From the NCBI GenBank assembly GCA_049514105.1, contig JBEKVJ010000001.1, forward strand, positions 5,954-69,953: 64,000 nucleotides of DNA, read 5' to 3'. The position numbers were made by a program, and so were the translations under genes. Positions 7,235 through 57,200 of this stretch are shown piece by piece. Under the pieces are notes generated by a model. That model saw nothing but the letters and a program-made list of their open reading frames with translations, ran no database searches and was not told where the DNA came from. Position 1 is the first letter of the stretch. Every line of letters begins with the position of its first letter. This DNA is from Acidimicrobiales bacterium (GTDB taxonomy: Bacteria > Actinomycetota > Acidimicrobiia > Acidimicrobiales > Bog-793).

Positions 7235-7271
7235 TGTCTCGATTAGCCGAGTAGTCAGTTGGGCTCATCAC

Positions 7272-8249: not shown

Positions 8250-8312
8250 TTCAGAACCTCCGATCGAAACGTAGATGGTGGTTGTCGCGCTCGGACGTGC
8301 AAGCTTGTCTCA

Positions 8313-39826: not shown

Positions 39827-39863
39827 TCAGCCTGCTGGTGAACCCGCGCCCGAAACGCTGCCT

Positions 39864-41696
39864 TTGCACAATGCCTCGTTTGGAGTCCGGTCCAGCACTG
39901 TTACCGGCCTTGGTGCGTTCGCCGCCATCGGCGCGGCCGTACTTTGCCTGGCGGTCTCGCCGAAGGTGAACTCGGGTACCTTCACGCCGAAATTCGCGGT
40001 ACTCCTTATCTTTGCCGCTGTCGGTGTCGTTCCTCTGGTACGTCTCGTGAAGACGGCCTCGCCCCTGCGGTGGCCGGCGACGGCCGCGGTGGCCTTTCTC
40101 GCCGTGGCGCTTGTTTCCGCGCTCGTATCACCCTCGCCCAACATCGGAATCTTTGGGCTTTACCTGTGGGGTACGGGCTGGTTGTTCTGGCTCGGGGTAG
40201 CCGGCGCGTTCGCGATTGGAGCGTCCCTTGGACAGCATGATCGGCAGTGGCTTTTTGCCGGGCTGGCCTTTGGTGCACTCGCCAGCGCAGCCGTGGCGGT
40301 CTTTCAGATCGTCGCGAACCCCCAGATTGGGGGCCTAACTCTATACGACGGCACACAGGCAGACGCAGCCCTTGGGAATCCGATTCACCTCGAGGCTCTT
40401 CTGCTTGGTGGACTGGCGCTCATACTGGGAAGGGCATGTCGCGCTCCACTGCGTTGGGCGGCAGCGGTCTTGCTCCTCTCGGTCGGGCTCGAGTTCACCT
40501 TTGAGCGTTTTGCCATCGTTGTCCTCGCCGGTCTGATTCTCTACGCCTTGTATTCCTACGGCGCCCGTCGCGGAGGCGTCTTTGCGCTCCTGGTCTGCGG
40601 AGGTTATGCGATCGCCTACCTCAGCGGAGGAGCTGGCCTCAGCTCGCGTGTGACATCGGGCACGACTGAGACGACATTTGGGGCGAGGATACGGATTTGG
40701 TGGGCGGCTGGCCACTACGTGCTGCACCACCCTCTGCTCGGAGCCGGCCCAGGTCAGACCCGAACCGCACTTGACTCGACCGCCACGCTTTCCTTCTTCC
40801 AGCATGTCCTGGTTGGTCGCGTCCTCGCGGACAGTCATGACGTTTTCGTCGAGGTTGCGGTGACGACCGGCCTGCTCGGTTTGGCTTGTTTCCTTGTCTG
40901 GTTGTTCGGCCTGGTCAGGAAGTCTGCGCGATGTGGCTTCCTTGGGTTCGCGGCTGCGCTGATCGCGGTGAACCTGGTGGAACCGCTCAACATAGCCATC
41001 CTCCCGCTCGCGTTCCTGGCCCTCGGAGCTGCCACGGCACTACGCCGAGACGTCCCACATGTACGAGCCGCTCCAGCTCCCCAACTCGAGCCCCAACCTG
41101 TGAGTTCATCCTCGGGTGCCGCGGCGACGGAGCGCTCCACGGCTCCCTACGCAGCCATCACGACCTTCGCAGTCGTGGCGATAGCGCTGTTGGTGGGAGT
41201 GACCATGGTGCTCGGGGACGCTGACATGGCTCGGGGCACGGACTATCGCCAAGGCCAGGTATTCAGTCTCTCAACCACCAAGAATGCCAGCACCCTCTTG
41301 CCCTACTGGCCCGATTCGGCGCTCGAGGTTGCCCAGGTCGAAGCTTACGAAAGCCTGACACCGGCCTCTGTCGATCTGAGGATTCTGGCAGAGTCACGGA
41401 ACTGGACCGCTGTTGCCGCAAGCCGGGACTCGCGGAACCCCCACATCTGGGTTCTGTTGGGCAGTGCCGATCTCGAGCTCAAGCAATACCAGCAGGCCCG
41501 AGTCGCTTACCTCCACGCCCTGTCGTGCGATCGGTGGTACACCCAAGCATTTGAGGGACTTGGGGCCGTGGCCGAGGCTCAACGGGACTGGACCCAGGCC
41601 GTCCATTGGTACCGGACCGCTCTGGTGACAGCTGAACTCGACCCTCTGATATCGGCTTCCATCAAAGGTTCTCTGCTTCGAGTGGAGCAACATTGA
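39864..41696 (+). CDS. Wzy_C/O-antigen-ligase-family polytopic membrane protein with C-terminal TPR-like domain
   Basis: It has multiple TM segments. The signature RIRIWWAAGHYVLHHPLLGAGPGQ...SHDVFVEVAVTTGLLGL is typical of the WaaL/Wzy/PglL family. The C-terminus has TPR-like repeats (LGSADLELKQYQQARVAYLHALS...AFEGLGAVAEAQRDWTQAVHWYRTAL). The ORF-track start (39732) overlaps the divergent transferase gene, so the start is probably at or after 39827, for example the TTG at 39864. Confidence 0.75.
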   Translation: MHNASFGVRSSTVTGLGAFAAIGAAVLCLAVSPKVNSGTFTPKFAVLLIFAAVGVVPLVRLVKTASPLRWPATAAVAFLAVALVSALVSPSPNIGIFGLYLWGTGWLFWLGVAGAFAIGASLGQHDRQWLFAGLAFGALASAAVAVFQIVANPQIGGLTLYDGTQADAALGNPIHLEALLLGGLALILGRACRAPLRWAAAVLLLSVGLEFTFERFAIVVLAGLILYALYSYGARRGGVFALLVCGGYAIAYLSGGAGLSSRVTSGTTETTFGARIRIWWAAGHYVLHHPLLGAGPGQTRTALDSTATLSFFQHVLVGRVLADSHDVFVEVAVTTGLLGLACFLVWLFGLVRKSARCGFLGFAAALIAVNLVEPLNIAILPLAFLALGAATALRRDVPHVRAAPAPQLEPQPVSSSSGAAATERSTAPYAAITTFAVVAIALLVGVTMVLGDADMARGTDYRQGQVFSLSTTKNASTLLPYWPDSALEVAQVEAYESLTPASVDLRILAESRNWTAVAASRDSRNPHIWVLLGSADLELKQYQQARVAYLHALSCDRWYTQAFEGLGAVAEAQRDWTQAVHWYRTALVTAELDPLISASIKGSLLRVEQH

Positions 41697-41881
41697 TGGT
41701 GTGAAGTAGGCCAACGATGGGCTCGCGCTGCGGAGCGCCGGAGGAGCAGCGAGAGCAGAGTTTGATGCCAGCACCTCGACTAGGCCTAAGACTCCGGAAG
41801 GCACAATCCGCTAAAGTTCCTGACGGTGCTGTCGATACTTTACTCGGTAGTACTTTCATTGACCCGAGGGAGGAAAGCTTC

Positions 41882-42466
41882 ATGAGAAATGTTGAGAGGC
41901 TGCGTGCACGGCGCCTCCAGATAGAGGAAGCAGGCGAGCAAGGCTTTACACTTATCGAACTGCTCGTCGTCTTGCTCATCATCGGCATCCTGTTAGCGAT
42001 CGCGATCCCGACGTTCTTGTCGGTGACCAAGACCGCGAACAACACCGCCGCCCAGTCGAACCTGCAGACGGCGCTCACGGGTGCCAAGACCTACTTCGAG
42101 GCGGCGAATCAGACCTACGTTGGCATCAACGGTGGCCCGCAGAACGCCGCGGTTTCGACCATAACCGCCATTGACACCGGCCTCACCTATGTCACCGGCA
42201 CGACAGCGTCGACAGCGTCGAACACTATCTCGGTCTACGCTGTGCCTTCGAGCACCGGAAGCGACATTGTGTTGGCCGCCTACTCAGCCGGCACGAAGGA
42301 GTGTTGGGCCATCGAGGACAACACAGCAGCTGGATACGATGTATTCGGCGGGACCGGCGTCGGCACAACCTACGCCGTGTGGAGGACCGGACAGTCCTCG
42401 ACGACTTGCAAGGGCAGTCAAACTGCTCCAACTCAAACCAGCACTACGGGTTTCCCAGCCGCATAA
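41882..42466 (+). CDS. pilA: Type IV pilin (prepilin with class III signal peptide)
   Basis: The ATG is preceded by GGGAGG (41866-41871). It has a 21-aa leader MRNVERLRARRLQIEEAGEQG, then FTLIELLVVLLIIGILLAIAIPTF (G-1/F+1/E+5). A C-terminal Cys pair (KECW...TTCKG) is followed by a Ser/Thr-rich tail. Confidence 0.9.
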   Translation: MRNVERLRARRLQIEEAGEQGFTLIELLVVLLIIGILLAIAIPTFLSVTKTANNTAAQSNLQTALTGAKTYFEAANQTYVGINGGPQNAAVSTITAIDTGLTYVTGTTASTASNTISVYAVPSSTGSDIVLAAYSAGTKECWAIEDNTAAGYDVFGGTGVGTTYAVWRTGQSSTTCKGSQTAPTQTSTTGFPAA

Positions 42467-42531
42467 CGAACTAGAGCATCCCTGCCTCGATTGCCTCTGG
42501 GACGGCGGGTCGAGCAGGAGATGAGGTTATG

Positions 42532-42569
42532 AGAACCCCCCGTGACCGTTGGCCACGGGGGGTTCTTTT
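42532..42569 (+). terminator. Rho-independent terminator of the pilin gene
   Basis: agaaccccccgtg (42532-42544) pairs perfectly with cacggggggttct (42554-42566). The loop is 9 nt and is followed by ttt(g). It lies 66 nt after the pilin stop. Confidence 0.8.
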
Positions 42570-43788
42570 GTCGTTGCGGCTCGCGCAGTGTCAATGCCGC
42601 ATGGCCGACTAAGCATTCTCCGCGTACCCTAACAGGACAGTGTGTCGATCGACTGGGCCGGAAGCTCTTAAATCCTTGGCGAAGCGACAGAGACCCGCAA
42701 TTGCAGCCCAATACATCACGTCAGGAGGCGCTCAGCAGCCTTCTGGGGAGCAGTGTTCGATCTCTCCGATGAGGCTGCGTCGTCACGTGCAGCGACTCGC
42801 GAGGAAAGCCAAGGGATGTGAGAGACGAGATCCTTGCTGCCATTGCACCGGAGCCTCGCGCGGAACCAACTCAGGCGAAGAGTCTCGTCACAGAGAACCG
42901 CGGAATGACAAGCTCTACGCGTTTGACTGGGAGCGCAAGCCCAGATCCTCAAGGGACGGTGTCGTTGCTGCCAAGCGACGCAGCCGGCGTGCAGCAGCGC
43001 TCATAGCTGGTAGTTCGAAACGCTGAAAGCCAGTTCACGCCCTTGGTCTGGCGCAAGAGTATTGTCTCTCGCTCGGCCCATTCGAGGCGCCCGTCGGGTA
43101 GTGATCTAGATCTCCTGTTGCCAGCGTTTGGAAGACGAGTGAGACGATCTCGAGAATCTCAATCTTCGTTCGACACGGGTCGGCTGTCGCTTTTCGAGGA
43201 GGAAGTGCTCTTTGTTTTGAATCGTCGGCGGGATAGACGTCAGGAGCTGACTCCTTGGCGAACAGAGCCGAGGTTCTCGTCGGATGGGTAACCGAGGTGC
43301 AGTTCCGAACTACACCCGCTCGTACCCGCGGTCGTCAACTCGGCACCGGAGAGGAGGAGCTCTCTTATCCGATAGAGCGGGTCTTCGTCCTGCGGCGCCC
43401 GGTCAATCGTTGTGTACACGACTCGAGCCGTCTGCAGATCACGGGCTCGTTGTCGGGACTCGATTCGTGTGGTGCTCGTGTCATCGAGGATGACGACGCG
43501 TTGCGGAGCGCATGGTCTTGCAGCGGGCGGACAAGGAAGGCGGCCTCCACCAGGTCCGCGCCGCCACCTCCCGCAAGCTAATCCACCCGGCGCTTCTCCT
43601 CAGGCCAGTTGGGACTCAGAGACTGGGAGGCGACGCTCGCATTTGAATGCGACGAGCTGGTTATCTGGTCGGCGAACAGGCTGGACCGCGGGTTGACCGA
43701 AGCTCAATGCGGGCTGCAGACACGCCGGACCACCGACGCGCAACGCCATCCAATGTTCTTACAAACGGCCGCATGCAGCATGCAGAGC

Positions 43789-44400
43789 TCAGGTTGTCCC
43801 CGTTGGTGCTACATAGGTCGTGTAGGCCGTTGCAGTCAGGGCCATGCTGTATGGCTGTCCGTCACCAGCGGCCAGGATGTTGGCGGCGGTGCTCGTTGGC
43901 GCGAGGCTCACAGAGTCGATTGTCATGAGCCGCTTCATTTTGTAAAAGCGGTTCAGGAAGCTAAACACATCACTGTGGGTCCCGGAGAGGGCGAAAGTGA
44001 CGCTGATGTTCGACAAGCCGGGCGTACCGCTGGGCGTGGGGCTGTCTGCTGGTGTGACCGACGAGAGATTGCAACCGGTCTGATTTGCAAGGGTGTTGAG
44101 CGAGTCGACGATCCCAGGGGGATCCTCTGTCGGAGGTATCGCAGTCGTCACCTTCTTTAGGAAGGGGAGCTCTTTCAGGACGAGCTTCCTCTCCGCCTTC
44201 AAGGACGTCAGCTCCGCGTTCAACTGGCTCACGGTCGTCTGATCAGCTGCGATTTGCGAGTTGACCGTGGCGAGTTTGTTGCTCTCGGGTGTCATCCAGG
44301 CGAACCACCAGATGATGAGAAGAAGGATCACACTTCCGGTGATTATCAGCACGACCTTGGATTTCAGAAGATCGAGATTTATAGCTCTAAGTCCGCTCAT
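43789..44400 (-). CDS. pilO: PilO-like type IV pilus assembly protein
   Basis: 203 aa with an N-terminal TM (VVLIITGSVILLLIIWWFAW), a coiled-coil (NSQIAADQTTVSQLNAELTSLKAERK) and an alpha/beta C-terminal domain. It lies immediately after the PilM-N gene with a 1-nt overlap. Confidence 0.7.
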   Translation of the reverse strand: MSGLRAINLDLLKSKVVLIITGSVILLLIIWWFAWMTPESNKLATVNSQIAADQTTVSQLNAELTSLKAERKLVLKELPFLKKVTTAIPPTEDPPGIVDSLNTLANQTGCNLSSVTPADSPTPSGTPGLSNISVTFALSGTHSDVFSFLNRFYKMKRLMTIDSVSLAPTSTAANILAAGDGQPYSMALTATAYTTYVAPTGTT

Positions 44401-46094
44401 TATGGCACCTTGAATTCGTTGGCCCTGATCGACGTGACTTCGCCAGTTACTCCGACGGTGGCGGAGAATGTGACGCTTGGTGACGTTACCTCTGTAATCC
44501 CACTGAAGCCGTTGACGGTGAGCTTCCCCGAACCGTCAACGGAGTAGTACCAGCTCCGGAAGTAGGGGTATCCAGCCGACGACGCGAGAGACAGGTTTAG
44601 AGTCGCGATCTGGGTCTCGGAGGGTGGAAGTACTACCGCTGCCGGGGCGCCGGCGGTTGTGGCGGGAATCGTACGAGGAACGATCGCCGCCGAGAAGGTC
44701 GAGATGGTGCCACCACTCGGCGTTGAGTGCCTCAGGGCAGCTATCACGCCGGGCCAGTAGACCTCGTCGTTCACGATCGGGTTGCTGACTGCCGACAAGT
44801 CGACGATCTCGGATCGCTCCTGTTGCACCTTGTTGTACTTCGGTATCTGAATCCTGACCGCCGTGATCTGGTTCTGGAGGCTCGCGACCTGATTCTCCGC
44901 GTCGTGCACCTTGAGGAAGCGGAGGGCACCGAGTGCGACCATGACCAGAACAATGAACACGGCGACGAGCATGAGAGTGCGCTCGAGTTGCTTGCGCTTG
45001 CGCCCCAGGATCACCTCAGGTGGGAGAAGATCGAGCTCCTTGACGTCCTTCGATCCCTGGATCGCAAGACCAACCACAACGGCCACCGAGGCGTCCAAGC
45101 GGCGGATTTCCTCGGTCGGCAGATGGAGTCGCGAGCAGTCGATCTGGTTCAGGACGCTGCCGATGAACACCGGCAGGCGAAGCTGCTGTTGCAGTTGCTC
45201 AGCGAAGCCGTAGAGACGGGACCCGCCACCGGTGATTACGACGCGGCGAACGGGGCTACGACCCGTCAATGTCGCGTAATAGTCGATCGAGCTGCGGAGC
45301 TCGCCAATCAATGACATGGCGGCGTCGCGGGCGGCTCCGATGGCGGTATGAATGTGCGGAGCTGCCCCATCCAGGTTCTGCTTCAACGATTCGGCGTCTG
45401 CAAGGGGCAGGTCAAGTACGCCGGCGATGGCGGCGGTGATCGTGTCGCCACCTTCAGCGATGGTTCTCACGAAGTGCGGGACTCCGTTTTCGTGCACAGC
45501 AACCGTCGTGAGGTCGGCACCGACCGAGACAATTGCCTCAGGGCCATCTATCGCCGTCTCAGTGCTGAAAAGGGCCCGGATTATCGCGGAGGACGTCGGC
45601 TCAATGCTGACCGGGACGAGTCCGGCCGCGGTCGCAACCTCGACCAGGGGATCGACCAAGTCGCGATGGGCCGCTGCCACAAGAACGCGCCTTTCGGGCA
45701 TTCCGTTGGGGCCGACGGTCTCCTCGAGCGGTCGCGCGGAGATGAGAGCCTTGTCGATCGCGAACGGGATGACGTCGAGGGCCTGAAGGCGCACTGCAGA
45801 ATCGATTTCCGCGTCTGGCAGAAGCGGCATCTCGAGCTCTCGGGTTATCGCGCGAAGACCTGCGATTCCCAGATGCACATCCCCGGCGGTGAACCCGCCT
45901 TCTTTCATGCAGCGTTCCAGCGCGACGCGGACGACGCCTTGCTCGAGGATGACTCCATCGATCACGGCCTGCGGAGGAAGAGCCACCTGGCCAAGCCGGA
46001 TCAGCTCTGGGCGCCCATGCCCAGTCACGACTTCGGCCATGCGCACCGCGCTGCTGCTGATTTCGACACTCACGCGCCGCGTAACCATCACCAT
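44400..46094 (-). CDS. pilM: PilM-PilN fusion protein (actin-like ATPase domain + TM/coiled-coil PilN-like domain)
   Basis: 564 aa. Residues 1 to about 350 are PilM-like (...VVITGGGSRLYGFAEQLQQQL...). These are followed by LLPPEVILGRKRKQLERTLMLVAVFIVLVMVALGAL, a coiled coil and a periplasm-type domain as in PilN. The start may be 2 codons downstream. Confidence 0.85.
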   Translation of the reverse strand: MVMVTRRVSVEISSSAVRMAEVVTGHGRPELIRLGQVALPPQAVIDGVILEQGVVRVALERCMKEGGFTAGDVHLGIAGLRAITRELEMPLLPDAEIDSAVRLQALDVIPFAIDKALISARPLEETVGPNGMPERRVLVAAAHRDLVDPLVEVATAAGLVPVSIEPTSSAIIRALFSTETAIDGPEAIVSVGADLTTVAVHENGVPHFVRTIAEGGDTITAAIAGVLDLPLADAESLKQNLDGAAPHIHTAIGAARDAAMSLIGELRSSIDYYATLTGRSPVRRVVITGGGSRLYGFAEQLQQQLRLPVFIGSVLNQIDCSRLHLPTEEIRRLDASVAVVVGLAIQGSKDVKELDLLPPEVILGRKRKQLERTLMLVAVFIVLVMVALGALRFLKVHDAENQVASLQNQITAVRIQIPKYNKVQQERSEIVDLSAVSNPIVNDEVYWPGVIAALRHSTPSGGTISTFSAAIVPRTIPATTAGAPAAVVLPPSETQIATLNLSLASSAGYPYFRSWYYSVDGSGKLTVNGFSGITEVTSPSVTFSATVGVTGEVTSIRANEFKVP

Positions 46095-46326: not shown

Positions 46327-47562
46327 TCAAGCGTTCGGCGACTGGAGAAGCTTGACGTAGTCGAACATCGGCAGGTACAGGCTGATGACGATGGCACCGA
46401 TGCACGCACCCATGAATAGGATGATCAACGGCTCGAGAATCGACGTCAGGCTGTCGACTGTCGCGTTCACCTCGTTGTCGTAGAACGTAGCCACCTTGTC
46501 AAGCATCTCGTCGAGCGCACCCGACTCCTCACCGGTCTCAACCATCTGGGTCAGCATGATGGGCATGACCGGATACTGAGCGAGGATCGTCGAGAGGTTC
46601 TTTCCCTCTCGAACGCCGTCTTGGGCCCCGATCAGCGCATCCGCGACGACCTGGTTACCGGCGTTCACGGCAACTATGTCGAGTGCCTCTATGACCGGCA
46701 CGCCTGCTGAAAGCAAGGACGAGAACGTAGTGCAGAAACGGGCGAGCGCCACCTTGTGCGAGAGCGGACCGAACACAGGTGGCCGCAGCTTGAAGGCGTC
46801 CCACTTTCTCCTGCCGCTCGGCGTCGCGATCCAACGGCGCATCAGGAACACAACCAGCACGATCGTCGCTATGACCGCTAGAAGCCAGACGCTAGCCACC
46901 ACATTCGAGATCGCGATGACGATCCGGGTCGGGAGCGGCAGCTGCCCGTTCAAGGTGGTGAACAGCCTCTTGAAGATCGGGACGATGAAGATCATCATCG
47001 CTGTCACGATCACGATGACGGCACAGAAAACGATCGTCGGATAAGCCATGGCGGAGCGGACCTTCTGGCGGAGCTCGACCTGCTTTTCAAGGGTTGACGA
47101 GAGCTTGAGGAGCACCGAGTCCAGCTGGCCCCCGACCTCTCCGGCTCGAACCATCGCTATGTACAGCGGCGGGAAAATCTTGGGGAGCTTCTCGAGCGAA
47201 GTAGACAATGACGAGCCCTGCTCGACATCTTGGCGCACCTGGAGCATTGCTTCTCGCAGGGGCTTGGACTCGATCTGATCGGCGAGGACGCCGAGAGCCC
47301 TCACGAGCGTCAGCCCTGCCGCAACCATGGTTGCCAGCTGACGGCTCATGAGCGCGACGTCTTTGAGGGCTACGCGGTCGGTGACCCCGGGTATCGTGAT
47401 CTCTCGTCTCAAGTTGAGAGAGACGGGTTTGATCTCGACGGGCGCGTATCCCATGTCCCGCAGGCGTGCCGCGACCAAGGGGACGCTGTCGGCTTCTAGC
47501 TGGCCCTTGACCAGCCTGCCGTCCGCGTCGCGGACCTTGTAGTCATAGGTAGTCGTTGGCAT
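46327..47562 (-). CDS. pilC: Type IV pilus platform protein PilC (GspF family)
   Basis: 411 aa with duplicated GspF-domain architecture (...REAMLQVRQDVEQGSSLSTSLEK... / ...LIGAQDGVREGKNLSTILAQ...) and three TM regions. Confidence 0.9.
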   Translation of the reverse strand: MPTTTYDYKVRDADGRLVKGQLEADSVPLVAARLRDMGYAPVEIKPVSLNLRREITIPGVTDRVALKDVALMSRQLATMVAAGLTLVRALGVLADQIESKPLREAMLQVRQDVEQGSSLSTSLEKLPKIFPPLYIAMVRAGEVGGQLDSVLLKLSSTLEKQVELRQKVRSAMAYPTIVFCAVIVIVTAMMIFIVPIFKRLFTTLNGQLPLPTRIVIAISNVVASVWLLAVIATIVLVVFLMRRWIATPSGRRKWDAFKLRPPVFGPLSHKVALARFCTTFSSLLSAGVPVIEALDIVAVNAGNQVVADALIGAQDGVREGKNLSTILAQYPVMPIMLTQMVETGEESGALDEMLDKVATFYDNEVNATVDSLTSILEPLIILFMGACIGAIVISLYLPMFDYVKLLQSPNA

Positions 47563-47594: not shown

Positions 47595-49469
47595 TCAACG
47601 GTGTCTCAGATAGTCGCGAAGCTCACTTGGATCGTGGCATCGATCGAAGGCCATCGCCTCGGTGATGCTACCTGCTTGGACAGCTTTGGCTAGACCCTGG
47701 TCCATTGTCTGCATACCGTTGGCCGCCCCGGTCTGGATCAGAGAGTAAATCTGGTGTGTCTTCGCGCTCCGGATGAGGTTGCGAATAGCGGGATTGCAGA
47801 GCATCACTTCTGCGACAGGCGTGCGGCCGAACCCGCTGGCGCTCAGCACGAGCTGCTGGGTGACGACGGCTTCCAATGACCCGGCAAGCTGGATTCTTAT
47901 CTGGTCTTGCTGGGCGCTCGGGAAGACGTCAATGATGCGGTCGATCGTCTGAGGAGCGTCCTGGGTGTGCAAGGTGGCGAAGACGAGGTGACCGGTCTCG
48001 GCGGCCGTAAGGGCCGTGGCGATGGTCTCGGTGTCGCGCATCTCGCCAATGAGGATCACGTCAGGGTCCTGACGCAGCACGTGGCGCAACGCCTCGGCGA
48101 ACGACTTCGTATCCGTGCCCACCTCGCGTTGGTTGACGATTGAGCGGTTGTGGGTGTGGAGGAACTCGATCGGGTCCTCGACGGTCACAATGTGGAGCGG
48201 CTTGGACTGGTTGATTATGTTGATCAACGACGCCAGCGTCGTCGACTTTCCAGATCCCGTCGGTCCTGTCACGAGCACGAGGCCTCGGCGCAGCTCCGCG
48301 AGTGTGGGAACGACAGCCGGCAGACCGAGTGTGTCAAAGGGCGGTATCTCGTGGGGGATTGCCCGCATGACAGCGCCGATCGAACCGCGTTGTTGGAAGA
48401 GATTGACCCGAAATCGCCCCACGCCCATGATCGTGTGGGCCGTATCCAGCTCTTTTTCTGCCTCGAACCGCTCACGCAATCCCTGGGTCAGGACCCGATA
48501 GACCATCTCGCGGATCTGCTCGTTGTCGATACGCTGCAGGCCCTCGATCGGTCGAAGGGATCCGTCGATTCGGATAGCCGGAGGAAGCTGGTTGGCCAGA
48601 TGCAAGTCGGATGCACCGTTGCGAACTGCGTAGGTGAGCAGCTCGTCGATGTCTAGCGTGCCATCAGGATTGTACGTGGGCACGAACGGCTCCATGTTTG
48701 GCATGCCGCCGGAACCGCCCGGCAAGTTCGTCCGCCTGACGTCAATGGCATAGTCGCCCTGCCAATCGTCCGCGTCGTAGCGGGGCTCAGCCGAGCCGTT
48801 CGAGGACACGTCGTACCCGATCTGGGCACCGGCCATGACGGGCTCGTGGATCTGCGCCGGCATGCTCGCGACGGGTTCGGGAACTGGTATCAGGCCCGGG
48901 CTGGCAACGACTGTCGAAACTGGCACCGTCGGAAAGGACGTAGTCTGCGGTTCTGGTGCTGCCGGCGGTGGTGTCGGTGCCGGTGTCGCGGCGGTTTCCT
49001 CGCTCGGCGACAGGCGCGGATATACAGCGTTCATGAGATGCTCGAGTGCGATCGGGTCGGCCAGAACACAGCCTGCGACCTCGATTCCCAAGAAAGCGGA
49101 CACTTCGCGTTGCTGGGAGATATCGAGCGGCTCAGCGGCCGCAAGCGTTAGGCATCCGGCTTCAAGCTTGTAACCGATCACCGTCAGCTCGCGGGCGAAA
49201 AGCTCAGGCACGAGACGAAATGCTTCACCCATTGGCCGGCTTGCGGAAATGTCAACAGAGGGGACTCCGGATATCCGGGAGAGCTCAGCCAATGTCGCGG
49301 CCGAGTCCACAAGGCCGCGGTCCGCCAGTACCGCTGCCACGGGTCGTCCGGTCGAACCAGCCTCTGAGAGCATGGCGACGGCGGTATCGCCCTGAACGCG
49401 ACCAGAGCTGACCAAGGTCTCGGCGAGACGCTTGGACCATTCTGTAGGTGACCTGCGGTCGGCGCTCAT
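47595..49469 (-). CDS. PilT-type (retraction-like) hexameric ATPase with about 270-aa N-terminal extension containing a T2SSE_N/GSPII-like domain
   Basis: The C-terminal 350 aa are PilT-like: SDLHLANQLPPAIRIDGSL...LVLVTGPTGSGKSTTLASLINIIN...IVTVEDPIEFLH...DPDVILIGEMRDTETIATALTAAETGHLVFATLHT. The N-terminus (LAETLVSSGRV...VDIS...LVPELFARE...LTLAAAEPLD) resembles the PilB N-domain. It overlaps pilB by 4 nt. Confidence 0.85.
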   Translation of the reverse strand: MSADRRSPTEWSKRLAETLVSSGRVQGDTAVAMLSEAGSTGRPVAAVLADRGLVDSAATLAELSRISGVPSVDISASRPMGEAFRLVPELFARELTVIGYKLEAGCLTLAAAEPLDISQQREVSAFLGIEVAGCVLADPIALEHLMNAVYPRLSPSEETAATPAPTPPPAAPEPQTTSFPTVPVSTVVASPGLIPVPEPVASMPAQIHEPVMAGAQIGYDVSSNGSAEPRYDADDWQGDYAIDVRRTNLPGGSGGMPNMEPFVPTYNPDGTLDIDELLTYAVRNGASDLHLANQLPPAIRIDGSLRPIEGLQRIDNEQIREMVYRVLTQGLRERFEAEKELDTAHTIMGVGRFRVNLFQQRGSIGAVMRAIPHEIPPFDTLGLPAVVPTLAELRRGLVLVTGPTGSGKSTTLASLINIINQSKPLHIVTVEDPIEFLHTHNRSIVNQREVGTDTKSFAEALRHVLRQDPDVILIGEMRDTETIATALTAAETGHLVFATLHTQDAPQTIDRIIDVFPSAQQDQIRIQLAGSLEAVVTQQLVLSASGFGRTPVAEVMLCNPAIRNLIRSAKTHQIYSLIQTGAANGMQTMDQGLAKAVQAGSITEAMAFDRCHDPSELRDYLRHR

Positions 49470-51910
49470 ACGACCACCCGCAGAATTTCCTCCAGGCTCG
49501 TTATGCCGAGCGCTGCTTTGCGCAATCCGTCATGACGCAATGGAACCATCCCCTGTTCGAGGGCTAAATGTTGTATGTCATCGTTCGAGCTGTGGGCGAT
49601 AATTGCCCTCTCGAGTTCTTCGTCAATAAGTAGGAGTTCCTGAAGGGCAATTCGGCCGCGGTACCCCGTTCTGCTGCAGGCCTGGCACCCGACGGCGCGA
49701 CGGAAGCGGACCTTTCCGTTCGGGGGCTCGTCGGCCTCGGTGAACCCGATCAGCTCGAGGTCCTCGGCGGTCGGGGAAAACTCCTCGAAGCAGTTTTCAC
49801 ACAGTTGGCGGGCTAGTCGTTGAGCCAGCACACAGTCCAAGGCCGAGCCGACGAGGAAAGGCTCGACGCCCATTTCGACAAGTCGCATCGGCGTGCCGGC
49901 CGCGTCATTGGTGTGAAGGCTCGAAAGGACCAGGTGGCCTGTGAGAGCTGCCTCGATGGCTATGACAGCAGTCTCGCGGTCTCTGATCTCGCCGACGAGC
50001 ACGACGTCGGGGTCCGAGCGCAGGATCGAGCGCAGGGCGTTAGCGAAGTGAAGGCCCGCCTTCGGGTTCACCTGCACCTGACTCACGCCACGTAGCTGAT
50101 ACTCGACCGGGTCCTCAACTGTGATGAGGTTGCGCTCGGGCGAGTTGAGCGCATTCAAGGTCGCGTAGAGTGTCGTGGACTTGCCTGAGCCAGTCGGTCC
50201 AGTTACGAGGATGGTGCCGTACGCCTTGCGGTAGGCGACCTCGTAACGCTTCTCGACAGTCGGCAGGAAGCCGAGCTGGGACAGCTGCAGGGATGCGCTC
50301 GACTTGTCGAGCACGCGAAGGACGATCTTCTCGCCGTGCACCGTCGGGAGGGTGGCCACGCGCAGGTCGATCTCACGCCGGCCGGCGGTGAGAGTGATGC
50401 GGCCGTCCTGGGGGATCCTGTGCTCTGCAATATCGAGACTCGCCATGACCTTAAGACGCGTCGTCACGCCACCTTGGATTGCCTTGGGGGACCGGGTCAC
50501 CTCGTGCAGCACGCCGTCGATGCGGAACCTGATCCGAAGATCGTCGGAGGTGGGCTCGATGTGGATGTCCGAGGCACGCTCTTGGAGGGCCTGGCGAAGT
50601 ATCAAGTTGACGTACTTGACGATCGGGGCGTCCTCGACGACAGCGTGAAGGTCGGTGAGTTCGGTGATCTTTGTCTCGTCACCGGCGGAGGTCTGCGAAG
50701 CAGCCGTCTGAGCGGCGAGGGTTGTCTCGCGGTCATGGCGATAGACCCGCGACAGGTACTCGGAGATCTGGCCCGCGCTGCACACCACGATGTGGACGTT
50801 GCCGAGCAGGGTGCGCAAGTCGTCGACGGCGAAGACGTCGGACGGGTTTGCCATCCCGATGATCGGCGTATCGCCGCGAAAACCTAGGGCGAGGACGCGG
50901 TGACGGCGCGCCAGCGCCTCGGGAATTAGCTTTGTCGCCTCGGGGTCAAGTGGTTGCTCGTTGAGGTCGACGAACTCCATGCCGCCCTCTGCGGCCGCAG
51001 CTCGTATCAGGTCCTCTTCAGAGACGAGGCCGAGCTCGCTCAAGATGTCGCCGAGAGACCTACCGGTCGCTGCCTGCTCTCTTAGGGCGGCCTCCATCTC
51101 CTCGCGCGTGACCTGGCCCGAGCTCACGAGAAGCTCTGCGAGCGCCGGCGTGCCCTTCTTCTCGATGACCGCAGCGACTTGAGCTGGGGGACTCTCAGCT
51201 TTGGCAGATGCGTTCAGAAGCTCCGAAGCGGCCTGGAGCGCGACCGCGTCCGCCTCCTCCTCGGAAGCCTCTTCGGCCCCGGCTGACTCGAGCGAGACGG
51301 CGAGCTCGGCTGCCTCGTCGGCTCCGAGATCGTCCTCCAAGGACGCAGGATCGGCGTCACTCACCGAGACGGCGCCTTCTGTCTCGGGGGGCGGCTGTAC
51401 CTCGGCGGCATCAGGCGGAGCAGGCGTCGTGGGCTCCTCTGACGCCTCCTCGGGAGCTGGGGGAGCTTCAGCGAGCGCAGTTGCGGACGGGCTCTTCATT
51501 GCGCCGTCCGATGTGCCGCGAAGCGTACGGGGATGAGCACTCGCCGCGTTGGTTTCGCTCCGGGCGTACATGCGCTCGACATAGGCGTCGATCTGAGACT
51601 CACATGCGACAACTGCGTGAATGTCGCGCCCGATCGTCGTGCGAAGGTCGTCCATGGCCATGACATCGTCCGGCCTGCCAACTGCGATGACCGGGGTGCC
51701 GAACTTCCATCCGACCGCCAGCGCGTGGTGACGACGGGCGGCCTGGTGTGGCAGCAATGATGTGGCTGCGGCATTGAGCGGATAGCGCTCGAGATCAACG
51801 TATTCAAGCCCGACCTCTTTCGCGAGAGCACGTGCTTCTGCCACCTCCGCCTTGGAGGGTGACACCTGGCGTCGAGCGGCGGTCGACGTGCTCTGTTCGG
51901 TGGTACTCAT
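49466..51910 (-). CDS. pilB: Type IV pilus extension ATPase PilB (GspE family) with two N-terminal T2SSE_N domains and an acidic linker
   Basis: 814 aa with Walker A ILVTGPTGSGKSTTLYATL and ...DPDVVLVGEIRDRETAVIAIEAALTGHLVLSSLHTN. A C-terminal tetracysteine CENC...CQAC is typical of PilB/GspE. Confidence 0.9.
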   Translation of the reverse strand: MSTTEQSTSTAARRQVSPSKAEVAEARALAKEVGLEYVDLERYPLNAAATSLLPHQAARRHHALAVGWKFGTPVIAVGRPDDVMAMDDLRTTIGRDIHAVVACESQIDAYVERMYARSETNAASAHPRTLRGTSDGAMKSPSATALAEAPPAPEEASEEPTTPAPPDAAEVQPPPETEGAVSVSDADPASLEDDLGADEAAELAVSLESAGAEEASEEEADAVALQAASELLNASAKAESPPAQVAAVIEKKGTPALAELLVSSGQVTREEMEAALREQAATGRSLGDILSELGLVSEEDLIRAAAAEGGMEFVDLNEQPLDPEATKLIPEALARRHRVLALGFRGDTPIIGMANPSDVFAVDDLRTLLGNVHIVVCSAGQISEYLSRVYRHDRETTLAAQTAASQTSAGDETKITELTDLHAVVEDAPIVKYVNLILRQALQERASDIHIEPTSDDLRIRFRIDGVLHEVTRSPKAIQGGVTTRLKVMASLDIAEHRIPQDGRITLTAGRREIDLRVATLPTVHGEKIVLRVLDKSSASLQLSQLGFLPTVEKRYEVAYRKAYGTILVTGPTGSGKSTTLYATLNALNSPERNLITVEDPVEYQLRGVSQVQVNPKAGLHFANALRSILRSDPDVVLVGEIRDRETAVIAIEAALTGHLVLSSLHTNDAAGTPMRLVEMGVEPFLVGSALDCVLAQRLARQLCENCFEEFSPTAEDLELIGFTEADEPPNGKVRFRRAVGCQACSRTGYRGRIALQELLLIDEELERAIIAHSSNDDIQHLALEQGMVPLRHDGLRKAALGITSLEEILRVVV

Positions 51911-52172: not shown

Positions 52173-52946
52173 ATGTCCCCAACTGTAGAGGCCGTGGCCG
52201 GCGTGTTCGGCCTGGTCATCGGCTCTTTCGTAGGCGTCGTCGTCGACAGGGTCCCCCGTAAGGAGTCGATCGTCTCGCCGCCGTCGCACTGCGTTGCCTG
52301 CTCGGCGCCCATACGCGCCTACGACAACATCCCGGTCGTCTCCTACGTGCTGTTAAGGGGTCGGTGCCGGAGCTGTGGGGCGCATATCCCCCCGCGGGAT
52401 GCGTTGTTGGAAATTGGGACCGGGGCGCTGTTCGTCCTGATGGGCTGGCGACTGGCCTCGGTCTGGGAGTTGCCTGCGTTTTGCCTGCTCGCGGCAAGTT
52501 TCGTGGCGATCTCGGCTATCGATGCCGAACACATGCGAATTCCCTCTCCGATCGTGTACGCGACCGCGGCCCTCGGCGCGCCGCTCCTGGTCGTCGCCTC
52601 GGCTGGCACTCACCGCTGGACGGCGCTGCTCAGCGCGTTGATCGGCGGCGCGGCGGCTTTCGCGGCCTTCTTCGCGCTCTTTTTCGCGGTGCCGAAGGGT
52701 ATCGGCTTCGGCGATGTGCGCCTGGCGGGGCTGTGCGGGGGATTCCTCGGTTGGTTCGGCTACCGCTATGTGGTCGTGGGCTTCCTCGTCGGCTTCATAG
52801 TGGCAGGACTACCTGCTGTGGTTCTGCTCGCGATGCGAAAGGTGCAGCGCCGCACCCAAATTCCTTTCGGCCCGTTCCTGGCAGCCGGGACGATCATCAC
52901 GGTGCTCGTCGGACCCCCGCTTGTTCACGCCTGGGCGAGGATCTGA
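52173..52946 (+). CDS. pilD: Prepilin peptidase (A24 family, PilD)
   Basis: 257 aa with the N-terminal Cys motif PPSHCVACSAPIRAYDNIPVVSYVLLRGRCRSCGAHI and multi-TM A24 aspartyl protease motifs (...AIDAEH..., GIGFGDVRLAG). Confidence 0.9.
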   Translation: MSPTVEAVAGVFGLVIGSFVGVVVDRVPRKESIVSPPSHCVACSAPIRAYDNIPVVSYVLLRGRCRSCGAHIPPRDALLEIGTGALFVLMGWRLASVWELPAFCLLAASFVAISAIDAEHMRIPSPIVYATAALGAPLLVVASAGTHRWTALLSALIGGAAAFAAFFALFFAVPKGIGFGDVRLAGLCGGFLGWFGYRYVVVGFLVGFIVAGLPAVVLLAMRKVQRRTQIPFGPFLAAGTIITVLVGPPLVHAWARI

Positions 52947-52951
52947 TTGGC

Positions 52952-54052
52952 TCAGTACTTGGCGGCAGAGCCGACCAGGCCACGCTTTTGCAGCGCGACG
53001 CGTAGGTCGTGCGGGTTCGATGCTGCTTGAGTCGCCGAGCGAAGGTCGATCGTGCCCTGCTCGAGCAGGGAAACGAGCGCCTGGTCGAAGGTCTGCATGC
53101 CGTAGTACTCGCCCTCGCGGATGATCGAGGTGATGTCGCCGCCCTGTCCCGGCTCGATGATGCACTGCTGGATGCGGCCGTTGGCGATCATGATCTCGAG
53201 TGCTGGCACTCTTCCGGAGCCGTCCGCAGTCGGCACGAGACGCTGGCAAAGCGTGCCCTTAAGCGCCCCTGCCAAGCTAAGACGGGCTTGACGCTGCTGG
53301 GCGGAGGGGAAGAAGTCCACGATCCGGTTAACGGTCTCGACGCAGTCGATCGTATGCAGTGTGGCGAAGACCAAGTGGCCGGTCTCTGCGGCGCTGAGGG
53401 CGGTCTCGACAGTCTCGACGTCGCGCATCTCGCCGACGAGGATGACGTCGGGGTCCTCGCGAAGTGCCGAGCGAAGCGCCACGAGGAAACTCGAGGTGTC
53501 GAAACCCACTTCGCGTTGGCTGACAGCTGAAAGCTCGTCGCGGTGCAGGACCTCAATGGGGTCCTCGATGGTGACTATGTGGCACTCGCGTGTGTGGTTT
53601 ATGTGGTCGATCATTGCGGCGAGAGTGGTCGTCTTGCCGCAGCCTGTCGGACCGGTGACCAGTATCAGGCCACGTTGCTCGTCCGCGAGTCGACGGACCG
53701 CCTCGGGCAGGTTCAACTCGCCGAATGACCGAGCATGGGATCGCACGAGTCTGAAGACCATTCCGATCGTGCTGCGCTGGCGGTAGGCGTTCACGCGGAA
53801 GCGACCGAGGTCCGCAATCGAGTAGGCGAAGTCTGCCTCGTTGGTCTCCTCAAAGTGGTCCCAGGTCCGTTGTTGCATTATTTGTTTGGTGACCTGAACC
53901 ATGTCTTCTGCTTTGATAACGGGCGAATCGGCTATACGAGTCAGGTCGCCGTTGATCCGCATCCTTGGTGGGGAGCCCACTTTCAGGTGCAGATCGGAGC
54001 CATCCGCCGCGGCAAGACGGCGTAGCAAATTATCTAGATCTGAGCGCTCCAT
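52952..54052 (-). CDS. pilT: Type IV pilus retraction ATPase PilT (canonical length)
   Basis: It has SDLHLKVGSPPRMRINGDL...LILVTGPTGCGKTTTLAAMIDHIN...IVTIEDPIEVLH...DPDVILVGEMRDVETVETALSAAETGHLVFATLHT. The start was taken at MERSDLDNLL; the ORF track extends to 54079. Confidence 0.9.
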   Translation of the reverse strand: MERSDLDNLLRRLAAADGSDLHLKVGSPPRMRINGDLTRIADSPVIKAEDMVQVTKQIMQQRTWDHFEETNEADFAYSIADLGRFRVNAYRQRSTIGMVFRLVRSHARSFGELNLPEAVRRLADEQRGLILVTGPTGCGKTTTLAAMIDHINHTRECHIVTIEDPIEVLHRDELSAVSQREVGFDTSSFLVALRSALREDPDVILVGEMRDVETVETALSAAETGHLVFATLHTIDCVETVNRIVDFFPSAQQRQARLSLAGALKGTLCQRLVPTADGSGRVPALEIMIANGRIQQCIIEPGQGGDITSIIREGEYYGMQTFDQALVSLLEQGTIDLRSATQAASNPHDLRVALQKRGLVGSAAKY

Positions 54053-54185
54053 ACACATAGCGTCGCGCATATCACGCAAAGTGGCAAAATTTTCGCGCTG
54101 AGAGCACCCGTCCTCGTATCACACTCATCTGTTGAGCACCCCCGCGCGCTATCGTGCGGTGGGGCTAATGACAGGCTTGTAGTTC

Positions 54186-54215
54186 GTCCACAGGCTGTGG
54201 ACGAGGCCTGTGGAC
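54186..54215. promoter_or_regulatory. Palindrome GTCCACAG-g-CTGTGGAC plus a third CTGTGGAC copy between divergent pilT and dnaE
   Basis: Read directly: gtccacag g ctgtggac gaggc ctgtggac. It lies 47-76 nt upstream of the dnaE ATG (54262). Any regulatory role is inferred only. Confidence 0.4.
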
Positions 54216-54261
54216 AGGGAGTGGGCGAGCGGTGGTCGAGGCAAGCGAAGCTAGAGCGGAC

Positions 54262-57200
54262 ATGGGTAATTCCTTCGTCCACCTGCACACCCATACCGAA
54301 TACTCGATGCTCGACGGCGCGGCCCGTATCGGTGACCTGGTCGCGGCGGCGGTTGCGGACGGCCAGCCGGCGCTGGCGATCACAGACCACGGCAACATGT
54401 ACGGGGTCCTCGACTTCTACAAGGAGTGCCATGAGCGCGGCGTGACGCCGATCATCGGCACCGAGGCCTACATGGCGGCGCAGTCTCGCTACGAGCGGCC
54501 TGTGCGTCGGGGCCGCATCGACGACACGGGGGGTGAGGGCGACAGGGGCGAGAAGCTCTACTACCACCTGACCGTCCTCGCCGAGACGACCCAGGGCTAT
54601 CGCAACCTCATCAAGCTTTCCTCGGCCGCCTACCTCGAGGGCTATTACTACAAGCCGCGCGTCGACTGGGACCTGCTCGAGGCCCACCACGAGGGTCTCA
54701 TCGCCACCACTGGCTGTCTCGGAGGCGTCGTGGCTCAGGCGCTTTTGGCTGAGGACTTCGACCTTGCCTTGAGCCTTACCGGGCGTCTCCAGGACATCTT
54801 CGGCAAAGAGAGCCTCTTCGTCGAGCTGCAGGATCACGGGATCGCGGCTCAGCGCACGACCAATCCCGCCTTGATAAGGATCGCCCGGGCCGTCGGCGCC
54901 CCACTGCTTGCGACCAACGACAGCCATTACTGCAGGCGCGAGGACGCGGTCGCGCATGACGCCCTTTTATGTGTCCAGACCGGGGCGACGATCCATGACC
55001 CGAAGCGCTTCAAGTTCGAGGGCCAGGAGCACTACCTGAAAAGTGCCCGGGAGATGCGTCAGCTGTTCGCAGAGGTGCCAGAAGCCTGCGACAACACGCT
55101 TTGGGTAGCACAAAGGGCCCGAGTCGAGATCGAGCTCGGCAAGCCCGCTCTCCCGCAATTTCCTGTTCCCGACTCTTTTAGGAGAGACACCTACGAACAG
55201 TCAGCCGCCGACTACCTGGCTCATTTGACCTACGAGGGAGCCGCTGGCCGATATGGCAGCCCGATCCCGCCCGAGGTGGCCGAGAGGCTCGACTTTGAGC
55301 TGAGGGTCATCTCGGAGATGGGCTTTGCCGCCTACTTCCTTGTTGTCTGGGACATCATCCGCTACGCGAGGGACTCGGGGATCCGCGTCGGTCCCGGCCG
55401 CGGTTCGGCTGCGGGGTGCTGTGTCGCCTACTGCTTACGCATCGTCGACCTCGACCCGATCCGCTACGACCTTCTTTTCGAGCGTTTCTTGAACCCCGGG
55501 CGCAAGCAGATGCCCGACATAGACATGGACTTCGACGAGCGCCGTCGGGGCGAGATGATCCGCTATGTCGCAGATCGCTACGGCGCTGACCACGTCGCTC
55601 AGATCGTCACTTTCTCGACCATAAAGGCTCGGGCCGCGGTACGCGACGGCGCCCGCGTTCTCGGGTTGCCCTATGCCCTCGGCGACAAGATCGCCAAGGC
55701 CATGCCACCGCTCGTCATGGGCCGTGACACCCCGCTGCGGGCATGTTTTGAGCGCGTGGATGGTCACGAGGACGGCTACATGGCTGCGGCGGACCTGCGC
55801 GAGATGTACGAACAGGACCCTGATGCAAAGCTCGTGATCGATGTCGCCCGGGGCCTCGAGGGCCTCCGGCGCCAGGACGGCATCCATGCCGCCGCTGTTG
55901 TGATCACCCACGAGCCGCTCACCGAGTACCTCCCGGTGCAACGCAAGCCCGAGCCGGGTGCCGAGCCCGGCGACGCCCCGATCGTCACCCAGTACGAGAT
56001 GCACGGCGTCGAAGAGCTTGGTTTGTTGAAGATGGACTTTCTCGGGCTGCGCAACCTCTCGGTCATCGAGATGGCGCTCGACCTCATAGAGCAGACGACC
56101 GGCACGCGCCCTGACATAGACAACGTCGCGCTCGACGACGAGGCGACCCTCGAGATGCTGAGGCGGGGAGACTCCATCGGGGTCTTCCAGCTCGAGGGTG
56201 CCGCGATGCGCTCGACACTGCGTTCGTTGGCGCCCACGAGCTTCGACGACGTCGCCGCGCTTGTTGCTTTGTACCGGCCCGGCCCGATGGCCGCAAACAT
56301 GCACCGCGACTACCCGGACCTGAAGAACGGCCGCAAGCCCGTCACCTACCTCCACCCGGAGATGGAGGCGATCTTGGGGGACACATACGGGCTGATGCTC
56401 TACCAGGAGTCGGTGATGCGCGTGGCGCAGCGTTTCTCGGGCTACAGCCTCGAGGAAGCCGACAACTTGCGCAAGGCCTGCGGCAAGAAGAACCGTGAGC
56501 TGATTGCCGCCGAGCGGGTGAAGTTCATCGCTGGATCTGTCCGTCAGGGCTACGACGAAGCGCTCGGAAAACAGCTGTTCGACATCATCGAGCCTTTTGC
56601 CGACTATGCCTTCAACAAGTCCCACTCCTACGGCTATGGGCTCGTCGCCTACCAGACGGCCTGGTTGAAGGCGAACCACCCGACCGAGTACCTGGCCGCG
56701 TTGCTGTCGTCGGTGAAGGGCGACAAGGACAAGACCGCCGTTTACCTCGCCGAGTGTCGCACGCTAGGCATCGAGGTGAGGGTGCCGGACGTCAATGCCT
56801 CGACGTCCAACTTCACTCCGATACGGGCTACTGGCGACAGCCCCCAAGCAGCTGGGCGGGGCGTGATCATTTTCGGGCTTTCGGCCGTGCGCAACGTCGG
56901 CGAGGCCATCGTTGAGCACATCGTCGCAGCCCGGGACTGCGGGGGGCCCTTCACCGACTTCTACGACTTCTGCCGCCGGGTCGACCCGAGCTCCCTCAAC
57001 AACAGAGCCGTCGAGTCGCTCGTAAAAGCCGGGGCCTTCGACTCGCTCTGCCATCCGCGCAAAGGTCTTTGCCTCGCGTTCGAGGGCATCATCGAGCGCG
57101 CGCTCGTTCGTCGGCGCGAGTCCGAGCAAGGGATCACGACCTTGTTCTCTCTGCTCGACGACCAAGCCGGCTCGGCAACGGCCGAGGGTGCGTCGCCGGC

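Follow-up and report, generated by a model that had tools for sequence, protein, structure and literature searches.

An MshEN domain at the N-terminus of a PilT-type ATPase in a type IV pilus cluster of Acidimicrobiales

What does an MshEN (GSPII) domain do on a PilT-type ATPase? Canonical PilT proteins comprise ∼ 340-380 amino acids (aa) and carry no MshEN/GSPII domain. The question is raised by a gene, here called MshEN-pilT, in a 64 000-nucleotide stretch of an Acidimicrobiales genome (contig JBEKVJ010000001.1, positions 5954 to 69 953; below, the window, to which all coordinates refer). Its product has three parts, an MshEN/GSPII domain (aa 6-154), a linker (aa 155-270) and a PilT core (aa 271-624). 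We propose, with confidence only slightly above even, that it is an operon-encoded PilT retraction ATPase whose MshEN domain, tethered by ∼ 115 disordered residues, would act as a docking or regulatory module that is blind to cyclic di-GMP (c-di-GMP). The features of the gene are as follows.

47595..49469, minus strand: MshEN-pilT, whole gene; ATG start, 624 aa plus stop (list of open reading frames (ORFs) and translation).
49008..49454, minus strand: MshEN/GSPII domain, aa 6-154 (AlphaFold2, Foldseek and the ratio of non-synonymous to synonymous substitution rates, dN/dS).
49269..49442, minus strand: four-helix subdomain, aa 10-67, with two degenerate 24-residue c-di-GMP motifs, R14-A37 and P43-I66 (model and alignment with MshE).
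49008..49268, minus strand: α/β C-terminal subdomain of the MshEN domain, aa 68-154, the part matched by Pfam (PF05157).
48660..49007, minus strand: disordered Pro-rich linker, aa 155-270 (full-length model, Pro count).
47598..48659, minus strand: PilT ATPase core, N2 domain plus C-terminal domain, aa 271-624 (TIGR01420, PilT structure 6ojx, model confidence of ∼ 90, dN/dS).
48240..48266, minus strand: Walker A motif GPTGSGKST, aa 402-410 (read from the sequence).
47766..47789, minus strand: AIRNLIRS, aa 561-568, the PilT-type AIRNLIRE with one substitution (read from the sequence).

A first-pass annotation, made by inspection of the DNA, had called the C-terminal ∼ 350 aa PilT-like and free of the tetracysteine, an assignment that stands. 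The PilT/PilU family model TIGR01420 (cut-off 319.1 bits) matches aa 274-616 with 483.7 bits over model positions 2-343 of 343, and it is matched by all 49 family members tested. The PilB model TIGR02538 gives 175.3 bits, far below its equivalog cut-off of 675.65 bits, and the GspE model 157 bits (cut-off > 600), so the core is not PilB- or GspE-like. Its best solved relatives are PilTs, namely 6ojx from Geobacter metallireducens (386 bits), then 5zfq, 2ewv and 3jvu; PilU (276 bits) and DotB and PilB (both ∼ 120 bits) follow. Besides the Walker A motif, the core has EDPIE at position 431, the Walker B motif DPDVILIGEMRD at 468 and the His box TGHLVFATLHT at 492. No CxxC pair of a zinc tetracysteine occurs in the product, the sole core cysteines being C558 and C611. 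The AIRNLIRE motif is specific to PilT and separates it from PilU. On reading the sequences, AIRNLIR was found in neither PilB nor the second PilT of the window. R567 does not vary among the 49 aligned family members, and conservation reaches at least 90% at R563, N564 and L565. By every sequence criterion but domain architecture the product belongs to the PilT/PilU family; with 624 aa and an MshEN domain it departs from the 340-380 aa, free of GSPII/N1, that mark PilT.

The N-terminal region had been likened to T2SSE_N/MshEN domains, and both sequence and predicted fold bear this out. Pfam MshEN (PF05157, cut-off 23.1 bits) matches aa 68-152 with 38.6 bits. A phmmer search with the N-terminal 155 residues recovered the MshE N-domain 5htl over aa 12-121 (E-value 2e-5), PilF GSPII (E-value 7e-7) and several PilB N-termini; the two-part MshEN domain is thus complete, beyond the half modelled by Pfam. 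An AlphaFold2 model of the domain, built from an alignment of 14 N-domains, has a mean predicted local distance difference test (pLDDT) of 90.4 and a predicted template modelling score (pTM) of 0.83. It shows helices at 10-21, 27-40, 44-50 and 56-67, followed by an α/β unit at 81-153. The top Foldseek matches in the PDB are solely MshEN/GSPII domains: 9g1w, 7lko, 5htl, PilF GSPII-B and XpsE-N. The closest fold is GSPII-A of Thermus thermophilus PilF (9g1w; template modelling score (TM) 0.73, E-value 1.4e-8) and the second the Xanthomonas citri PilB N-domain from its complex with PilZ (7lko, E-value 8e-8); for 9g1w, 7lko and 5htl the probability is 1.00 and the TM 0.59-0.73. An alignment by eye with the second N-domain (N2) of the adjacent PilB was reproduced by BLASTP, which aligns aa 15-134 with PilB aa 257-377 at 30% identity over 122 residues (E-value 1e-10). 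By score and by fold the domain belongs to the MshEN family; it lacks the family's ligand motif, as set out below.

The linker, noted earlier as Pro-rich, contains TPAPTPPPAAPEPQTT and has 22 Pro in 116 residues (19%). Its length and sequence differ widely among homologues. In a model of the full-length protein, pLDDT is below 50 at aa 155-232 and 240-255, both folded parts reach ∼ 90 and pTM is 0.57. We read this combination as two independent domains on a disordered tether.

Is the N-terminal region really part of the protein? The first-pass annotation took it to be translated, and the data agree. The start is shared by all 23 aligned sequences. Homologue alignments give W11, S12, L15, L19, G68, D73, P79, A83, F84, P88, A92, R93, G99, Y100, E113, P114, L136, A137, D138 and Y150 as invariant, and 26 invariant N-domain residues are kept across sequences that are 47-83% identical. 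Purifying selection acts on the N-domain, whose dN/dS in comparisons with relatives is 0.03-0.28; the linker has 0.14-0.84 and the core 0.02-0.11. One gene call of the Joint Genome Institute (JGI; P0003, 545 aa) starts the identical protein at Met80, which halves the MshEN domain. Taken with a weak GC periodicity by codon position in aa 1-79, this call would fit an artefact, in which a wrong start codon or a frameshift joining two genes had placed a region outside PilT in front of it. However, dN/dS over aa 9-79, upstream of Met80, is 0.06-0.33, the whole of aa 6-154 folds confidently as one domain in the model, the start is conserved at the pilB stop, and the ORF is single and uninterrupted in the window and in 41 genomes. 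We give an artefact almost no credence and reject both the wrong start and the frameshift fusion. The Met80 start is an annotation error, against which selection and the predicted fold argue.

How widespread is the architecture? More than 100 full-length homologous protein clusters of 581-658 aa combine PF05157 with PF00437. The best 120 matches in protein collections are called PilT where they are named, and all but three truncated entries have both domains. A genome scan, covering one genome per species with patterns from the N-domain specific to the window's clade, gave 41 loci, the best 95% identical and all in metagenome-assembled genomes (MAGs) of Acidimicrobiales/Acidimicrobiaceae, mostly from peat and soil projects. 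The architecture is kept in 41/41 of these loci, and every one of sufficient length has the order pilT2..pilB (N1, N2, core)-MshEN-pilT-pilC-pilMN. Divergence is faster in the N-domain (27-95% identity) than in the core (66-97%). Searching 1.84 billion representatives with the N-domain alone returned 394 relatives; among the best 150 are PilT-core proteins that include more distant forms of 547-621 aa, some named Acidimicrobiales. A partial match (P0226) led to a second large clade (P0277-P0395) of 510-548 aa with short linkers and the N-terminus SRKLGELLVDR..., the taxonomy of which rests on a few NCBI names, 'Acidimicrobiia bacterium'. Two distant members (L042, at 7001-8560 of that locus, and L043) have the same pilB-pilT-pilC...pilM context and lie beside PilBs with a single MshEN domain. 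As far as sampled with clade-specific patterns, the fusion is a trait of the class Acidimicrobiia.

The origin of the domain had been put down to shuffling from PilB. Homology to PilB N2 (30% identity) supports the source in a general sense; a local or recent event does not fit, as the fusion is common to two deep clades of Acidimicrobiia. In a neighbour-joining tree of 42 MshEN domains (146 columns), the PilT-linked domains split from all PilB-linked ones, including those of the neighbouring PilBs, with a bootstrap of 62/100. MshEN domains of foreign PilBs also score as well against the N-domain as its own PilB N2. We therefore reject a recent copy of the adjacent N2. The simplest reading, with moderate support from the sequences, would be one old fusion event with faster evolution thereafter; at 62/100 on ∼ 146 columns the tree does not name the donor.

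Does the domain still sense c-di-GMP? The MshEN motif is a tandem of 24 residues, RLGxx(L/V/I)(L/V/I)xxG(L/V/I)(L/V/I)xxxxLxxxLxxQ, with a 5-residue spacing (PMC5013675), and mutation of its conserved residues markedly reduces binding (Wang 2016, PMC5013675). In the window protein the motifs read RLAETLVSSGRVQGDTAVAMLSEA (motif 1) and PVAAVLADRGLVDSAATLAELSRI (motif 2), and Gly3 and the final Gln are gone from both. Against MshE the domain reads R14-L15-A16...A30...L34..A37 and P43-V44-A45...T59...L63..I66, the replacements being G11 to A16, L25 to A30, Q32 to A37, G40 to A45, L54 to T59 and Q61 to I66. Of the 12 positions that contact the ligand, six have changed, namely the two Gly, the two Gln and a Leu in each motif. 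NF053729, the curated NCBIfam model of the c-di-GMP motif (cut-off 38 bits), does not match the N-domain even at E ≤ 10; it matches PilB N2 with 49-53.5 bits over aa 257-306, which passes. The same regulatory input as PilB, which the first-pass annotation had considered, is thus unlikely here: PilB N2 scores 53.5 bits, and the PilT domain, having lost both Gly and both Gln, has no match. In the window's wider clade the model gives 26 bits or nothing. Five of seven N-termini of the short-linker sister clade pass (39.1-54.1 bits) with the other two just under, and 25 of the 49 aligned family members match at E ≤ 0.01. The relaxed motif of Wang 2016, sought by regular expression, was found in 0 of 118 clade members and in none of the sister clade; since 25 of 49 match NF053729, the expression gives false negatives in the sister clade, and we rely on the hidden Markov model and on the reading of residues. 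From its sequence, the N-domain is predicted not to bind c-di-GMP. Sister-clade members may, by the same reading, be candidate c-di-GMP binders.

The domain could nonetheless still bind c-di-GMP, or another nucleotide messenger akin to it, and gate retraction directly. The MshEN fold is complete, R14, L15, L19, V20, G23, L34, G52 and L63 of the motifs are kept, the sister clade passes NF053729, and GSPII-B of PilF binds c-di-GMP at 6 nM although it is off consensus (PMC11731258). However, the changes at A16, A45, A37, I66, A30 and T59 fall on the motif, in which mutation of conserved residues markedly lowers binding (Wang 2016), NF053729 finds nothing, the relaxed motif is absent from all 118 close homologues (by the expression that also missed the NF053729-positive sister clade), and the closest fold is that of GSPII-A, the one GSPII domain of PilF that isothermal titration calorimetry showed not to bind c-di-GMP (PMC11731258). 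We consider a nucleotide receptor unlikely. The loss of the ligand motif under continued purifying selection makes a protein-binding module the most likely role for the domain.

What could such a module bind? In the window lies a complete type IVa pilus cluster comprising pilT2, pilD, pilB, MshEN-pilT, pilC, pilMN, pilO and a pilin gene, with the following neighbours of MshEN-pilT.

39732-41696, plus strand: Wzy_C (O-antigen ligase-like) membrane protein with C-terminal tetratricopeptide repeats, directly upstream of the pilin gene.
41717..42466, plus strand: type IV pilin (PF07963 N_methyl, 30.8 bits over aa 74-97).
43789..44400, minus strand: pilO-like gene (PF04350, 29.2 bits).
44400..46094, minus strand: pilM with a membrane-anchored C-terminal extension (PilM-PilN-like fusion), 564 aa (PF11104, 121 bits, aa 10-346).
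46327..47562, minus strand: pilC, platform protein T2SSF (PF00482, 220 bits).
49466..51910, minus strand: pilB, 814 aa (TIGR02538, 654 bits, just under the cut-off of 675.65).
52173..52946, plus strand: prepilin peptidase pilD (PF06750, 108.9 bits; PF01478, 45.7 bits).
52952..54052, minus strand: pilT2, second PilT/PilU-family ATPase, 366 aa (TIGR01420, 453 bits).
54232-57912, plus strand: dnaE, DNA polymerase III α subunit, 1226 aa, flanking the pilus cluster.

The pilB stop overlaps the MshEN-pilT start by four nucleotides (ATGA; ...GTC GTA TGA / ATG AGC...), as had been noted. PilB has a truncated MshEN N1 (aa 26-131), a full MshEN N2 (aa 257-400) with an intact c-di-GMP motif and a core with the tetracysteine (CENC and CQAC). 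It is unusually long, the N1 without its four-helix c-di-GMP half being followed by an acidic Pro/Ala-rich spacer of ∼ 120 residues and then N2; ordinary single-MshEN PilBs of 550-559 aa occur in more distant Acidimicrobiia (L042, L043). The pilMN gene lies downstream of pilC in all complete loci. Its product has a hydrophobic segment near aa 373-392, and like fusions of 559-578 aa are present in L042 and L043. The canonical-length PilT that the first-pass annotation had also listed is confirmed as pilT2. Its best PDB match is T. thermophilus PilT 5fl3 (349 bits), its Walker A motif is GPTGCGKTT, and GRIQQCIIE stands in the place of AIRNLIRE. It is kept ∼ 3.5 kb upstream of pilB in all relatives. 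Without AIRNLIR it looks PilU-like to us and may be the accessory motor of this pilus. No PilZ-like gene was seen among the scanned ORFs of the cluster.

The pilin probably starts at Met56 (41882), after a 55-residue extension in the listed ORF, which gives the leader MRNVERLRARRLQIEEAGEQG/FTLIELL. The 5' part of the pilin gene is conserved in relatives, in up to three copies (e.g. L012). The Wzy_C neighbour suggests pilin glycosylation. Between the pilin gene and pilO, ∼ 1.3 kb (42467-43788) hold no ORF > 130 aa and show no nucleotide conservation in related loci; an Rfam scan of the window gave no match. An ORF of 307 aa (54034-54957, minus strand) overlaps the start of dnaE, finds no match in Pfam and is unlikely to be a gene.

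MshEN-pilT is marked as the gene for this machine's PilT by the orthodox core of its product, by AIRNLIR and by its place between pilB and pilC, and the product would accordingly be expected to drive retraction. In the model that we favour, the MshEN domain would no longer sense c-di-GMP and would serve as a protein-protein docking or regulatory module. Docked on a PilM-N ring or on PilC, the retraction motor would stay at the cytoplasmic base of the machine. The ∼ 115-residue tether would let the hexamer remain near the base while PilB occupies it, and PilB and PilT could then exchange locally. A contact between the N1 domain (N1D) of PilB and the PilM stator has been proposed from the GspE-GspL pair (PMC11656802). 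PilM or PilC may, as the first-pass annotation had considered, be a partner that the window protein shares with PilB, and PilM-N is a candidate for docking. Several points weigh against this model. Canonical PilTs engage the machine without an MshEN domain, so that docking is not obviously needed. The tight binding by off-consensus GSPII-B shows that the motif rules are imperfect, and the invariant Trp11-Ser12 ahead of Arg14-Leu15 could make a different ligand site. Moreover, the sister clade keeps the motif, so the ancestral role on PilT may have been nucleotide sensing and not docking.

Would the gene instead encode an extension motor, or one that both extends and retracts, to which the MshEN domain lends the contacts of an assembly ATPase while PilT2 is the real retraction motor? 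The GSPII/N1D has been described as a feature that distinguishes extension from retraction motors (PMC11656802), and Vibrio cholerae PilT is reported to promote both extension and retraction of the mannose-sensitive haemagglutinin (MSHA) pilus (PMC9815625). A second canonical-length PilT is also conserved nearby. However, a full tetracysteine PilB lies directly upstream in every locus, by score the core is much closer to PilT than to PilB, and it is this core that has AIRNLIR; the motif is absent from PilT2, which makes PilT2 the more PilU-like accessory. We judge an extension or bifunctional motor very unlikely.

The N-domain might also act within the motor, by autoinhibition or oligomerization (hexamer assembly, ATPase activity) or by pairing with the truncated N1 of PilB. 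A long flexible tether would let it reach its own hexamer, the PilB of this clade has the extra truncated MshEN N1 without the four-helix half, and movements of the PilF N1D are coupled to the ATPase cycle (PMC11656802). In the monomer model the N-domain is not packed confidently against the core, with a pTM of 0.57 despite high pLDDT in both domains, and clades with a single-MshEN PilB still have MshEN-PilT, so that pairing with PilB N1 is not a general role. Action within the motor seems to us distinctly unlikely, and docking at the base remains the model that we prefer.

Where does this stand in the literature? We found no PilT with an MshEN or GSPII domain described in the literature that we searched, which is not proof of absence. 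The list of fusions in the MshEN paper names ATPase, glycosyltransferase and other domains and leaves PilT unmentioned (PMC5013675). MshEN-PilTs can be found in public databases, where they have automatic Pfam hits and are named PilT, and they appear to be undiscussed. The role of the N1D/GSPII is described in a review as poorly understood, the domain being invisible in most structures. An MshEN domain on PilT across a bacterial class breaks the rule that GSPII/N1D marks extension motors. The motif is kept in one sub-lineage and lost in the other, which offers a comparative handle on whether docking, signal input or both are the function of the domain, and the same contrast bears on the recruitment and exchange of motors at the pilus base. 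A broader reading, which we regard as possible but doubtful, is that Acidimicrobiia have re-engineered pilus dynamics by moving the MshEN module of extension motors onto the retraction motor, with PilT as a direct c-di-GMP receptor in the short-linker clade and the domain repurposed in the window's clade as a signal-blind tether to the base at PilM-N/PilC. If this were true, retraction, beyond extension alone, would be gated by a second messenger, a control of type IV pili not yet described, and a comparison of the two clades would amount to a natural experiment in N1D/GSPII function in the motors of type IV pili and type II secretion systems. For annotation, the presence of MshEN as a criterion for PilB/GspE would mislabel MshEN-PilTs, and in at least one public gene call the domain is already cut short. 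The hosts are abundant Acidimicrobiales of peat and soil seen only as MAGs, and the finding informs on the surface behaviour of this uncultured group.

Compared with known retraction motors, the protein resembles the PilTs of Pseudomonas aeruginosa (3jvu), G. metallireducens (6ojx) and Aquifex aeolicus (2ewv) in its Walker A and B motifs, its Asp and His boxes, AIRNLIR and the lack of a tetracysteine. With 6ojx the core aligns end to end (aa 273-621 vs residues 23-371, 386 bits). A gene between pilB and pilC is likewise found in PilT systems. Canonical PilT lacks the ∼ 270 residues at the N-terminus, which comprise a folded MshEN domain and a disordered linker. PilU belongs to the same TIGR01420 family, and the second member in the window lacks AIRNLIRE as PilU does; the MshEN-pilT product itself differs from PilU in scoring 386 bits to PilT vs 276 to PilU and in keeping AIRNLIR.

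Among motors with a comparable N-terminus, MshE (5htl), PilB and T. thermophilus PilF share the two-subdomain fold (TM 0.62-0.73) and homologous sequence N-terminal to a PilT/VirB11-class ATPase, whereas the window protein has a PilT-type core, degenerate tandem motifs and a conserved EWSxRL N-terminus specific to its family. PilF GSPII-A (9g1w) is the closest in fold, also has a degenerate motif and is a non-binder (PMC11731258). However, on the extension motor PilF it comes first in a row of three GSPII domains, and it has one near-perfect motif, while both motifs of the window protein are degenerate and its motor is a PilT. The complexes of GspE N1 with GspL (4pht, 2bh1) and of X. citri PilB with PilZ (7lko) are precedents for an MshEN-type domain as a docking module. 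Their partners, GspL and PilZ, belong to other systems; for the window protein the contact that we infer is with PilM-N.

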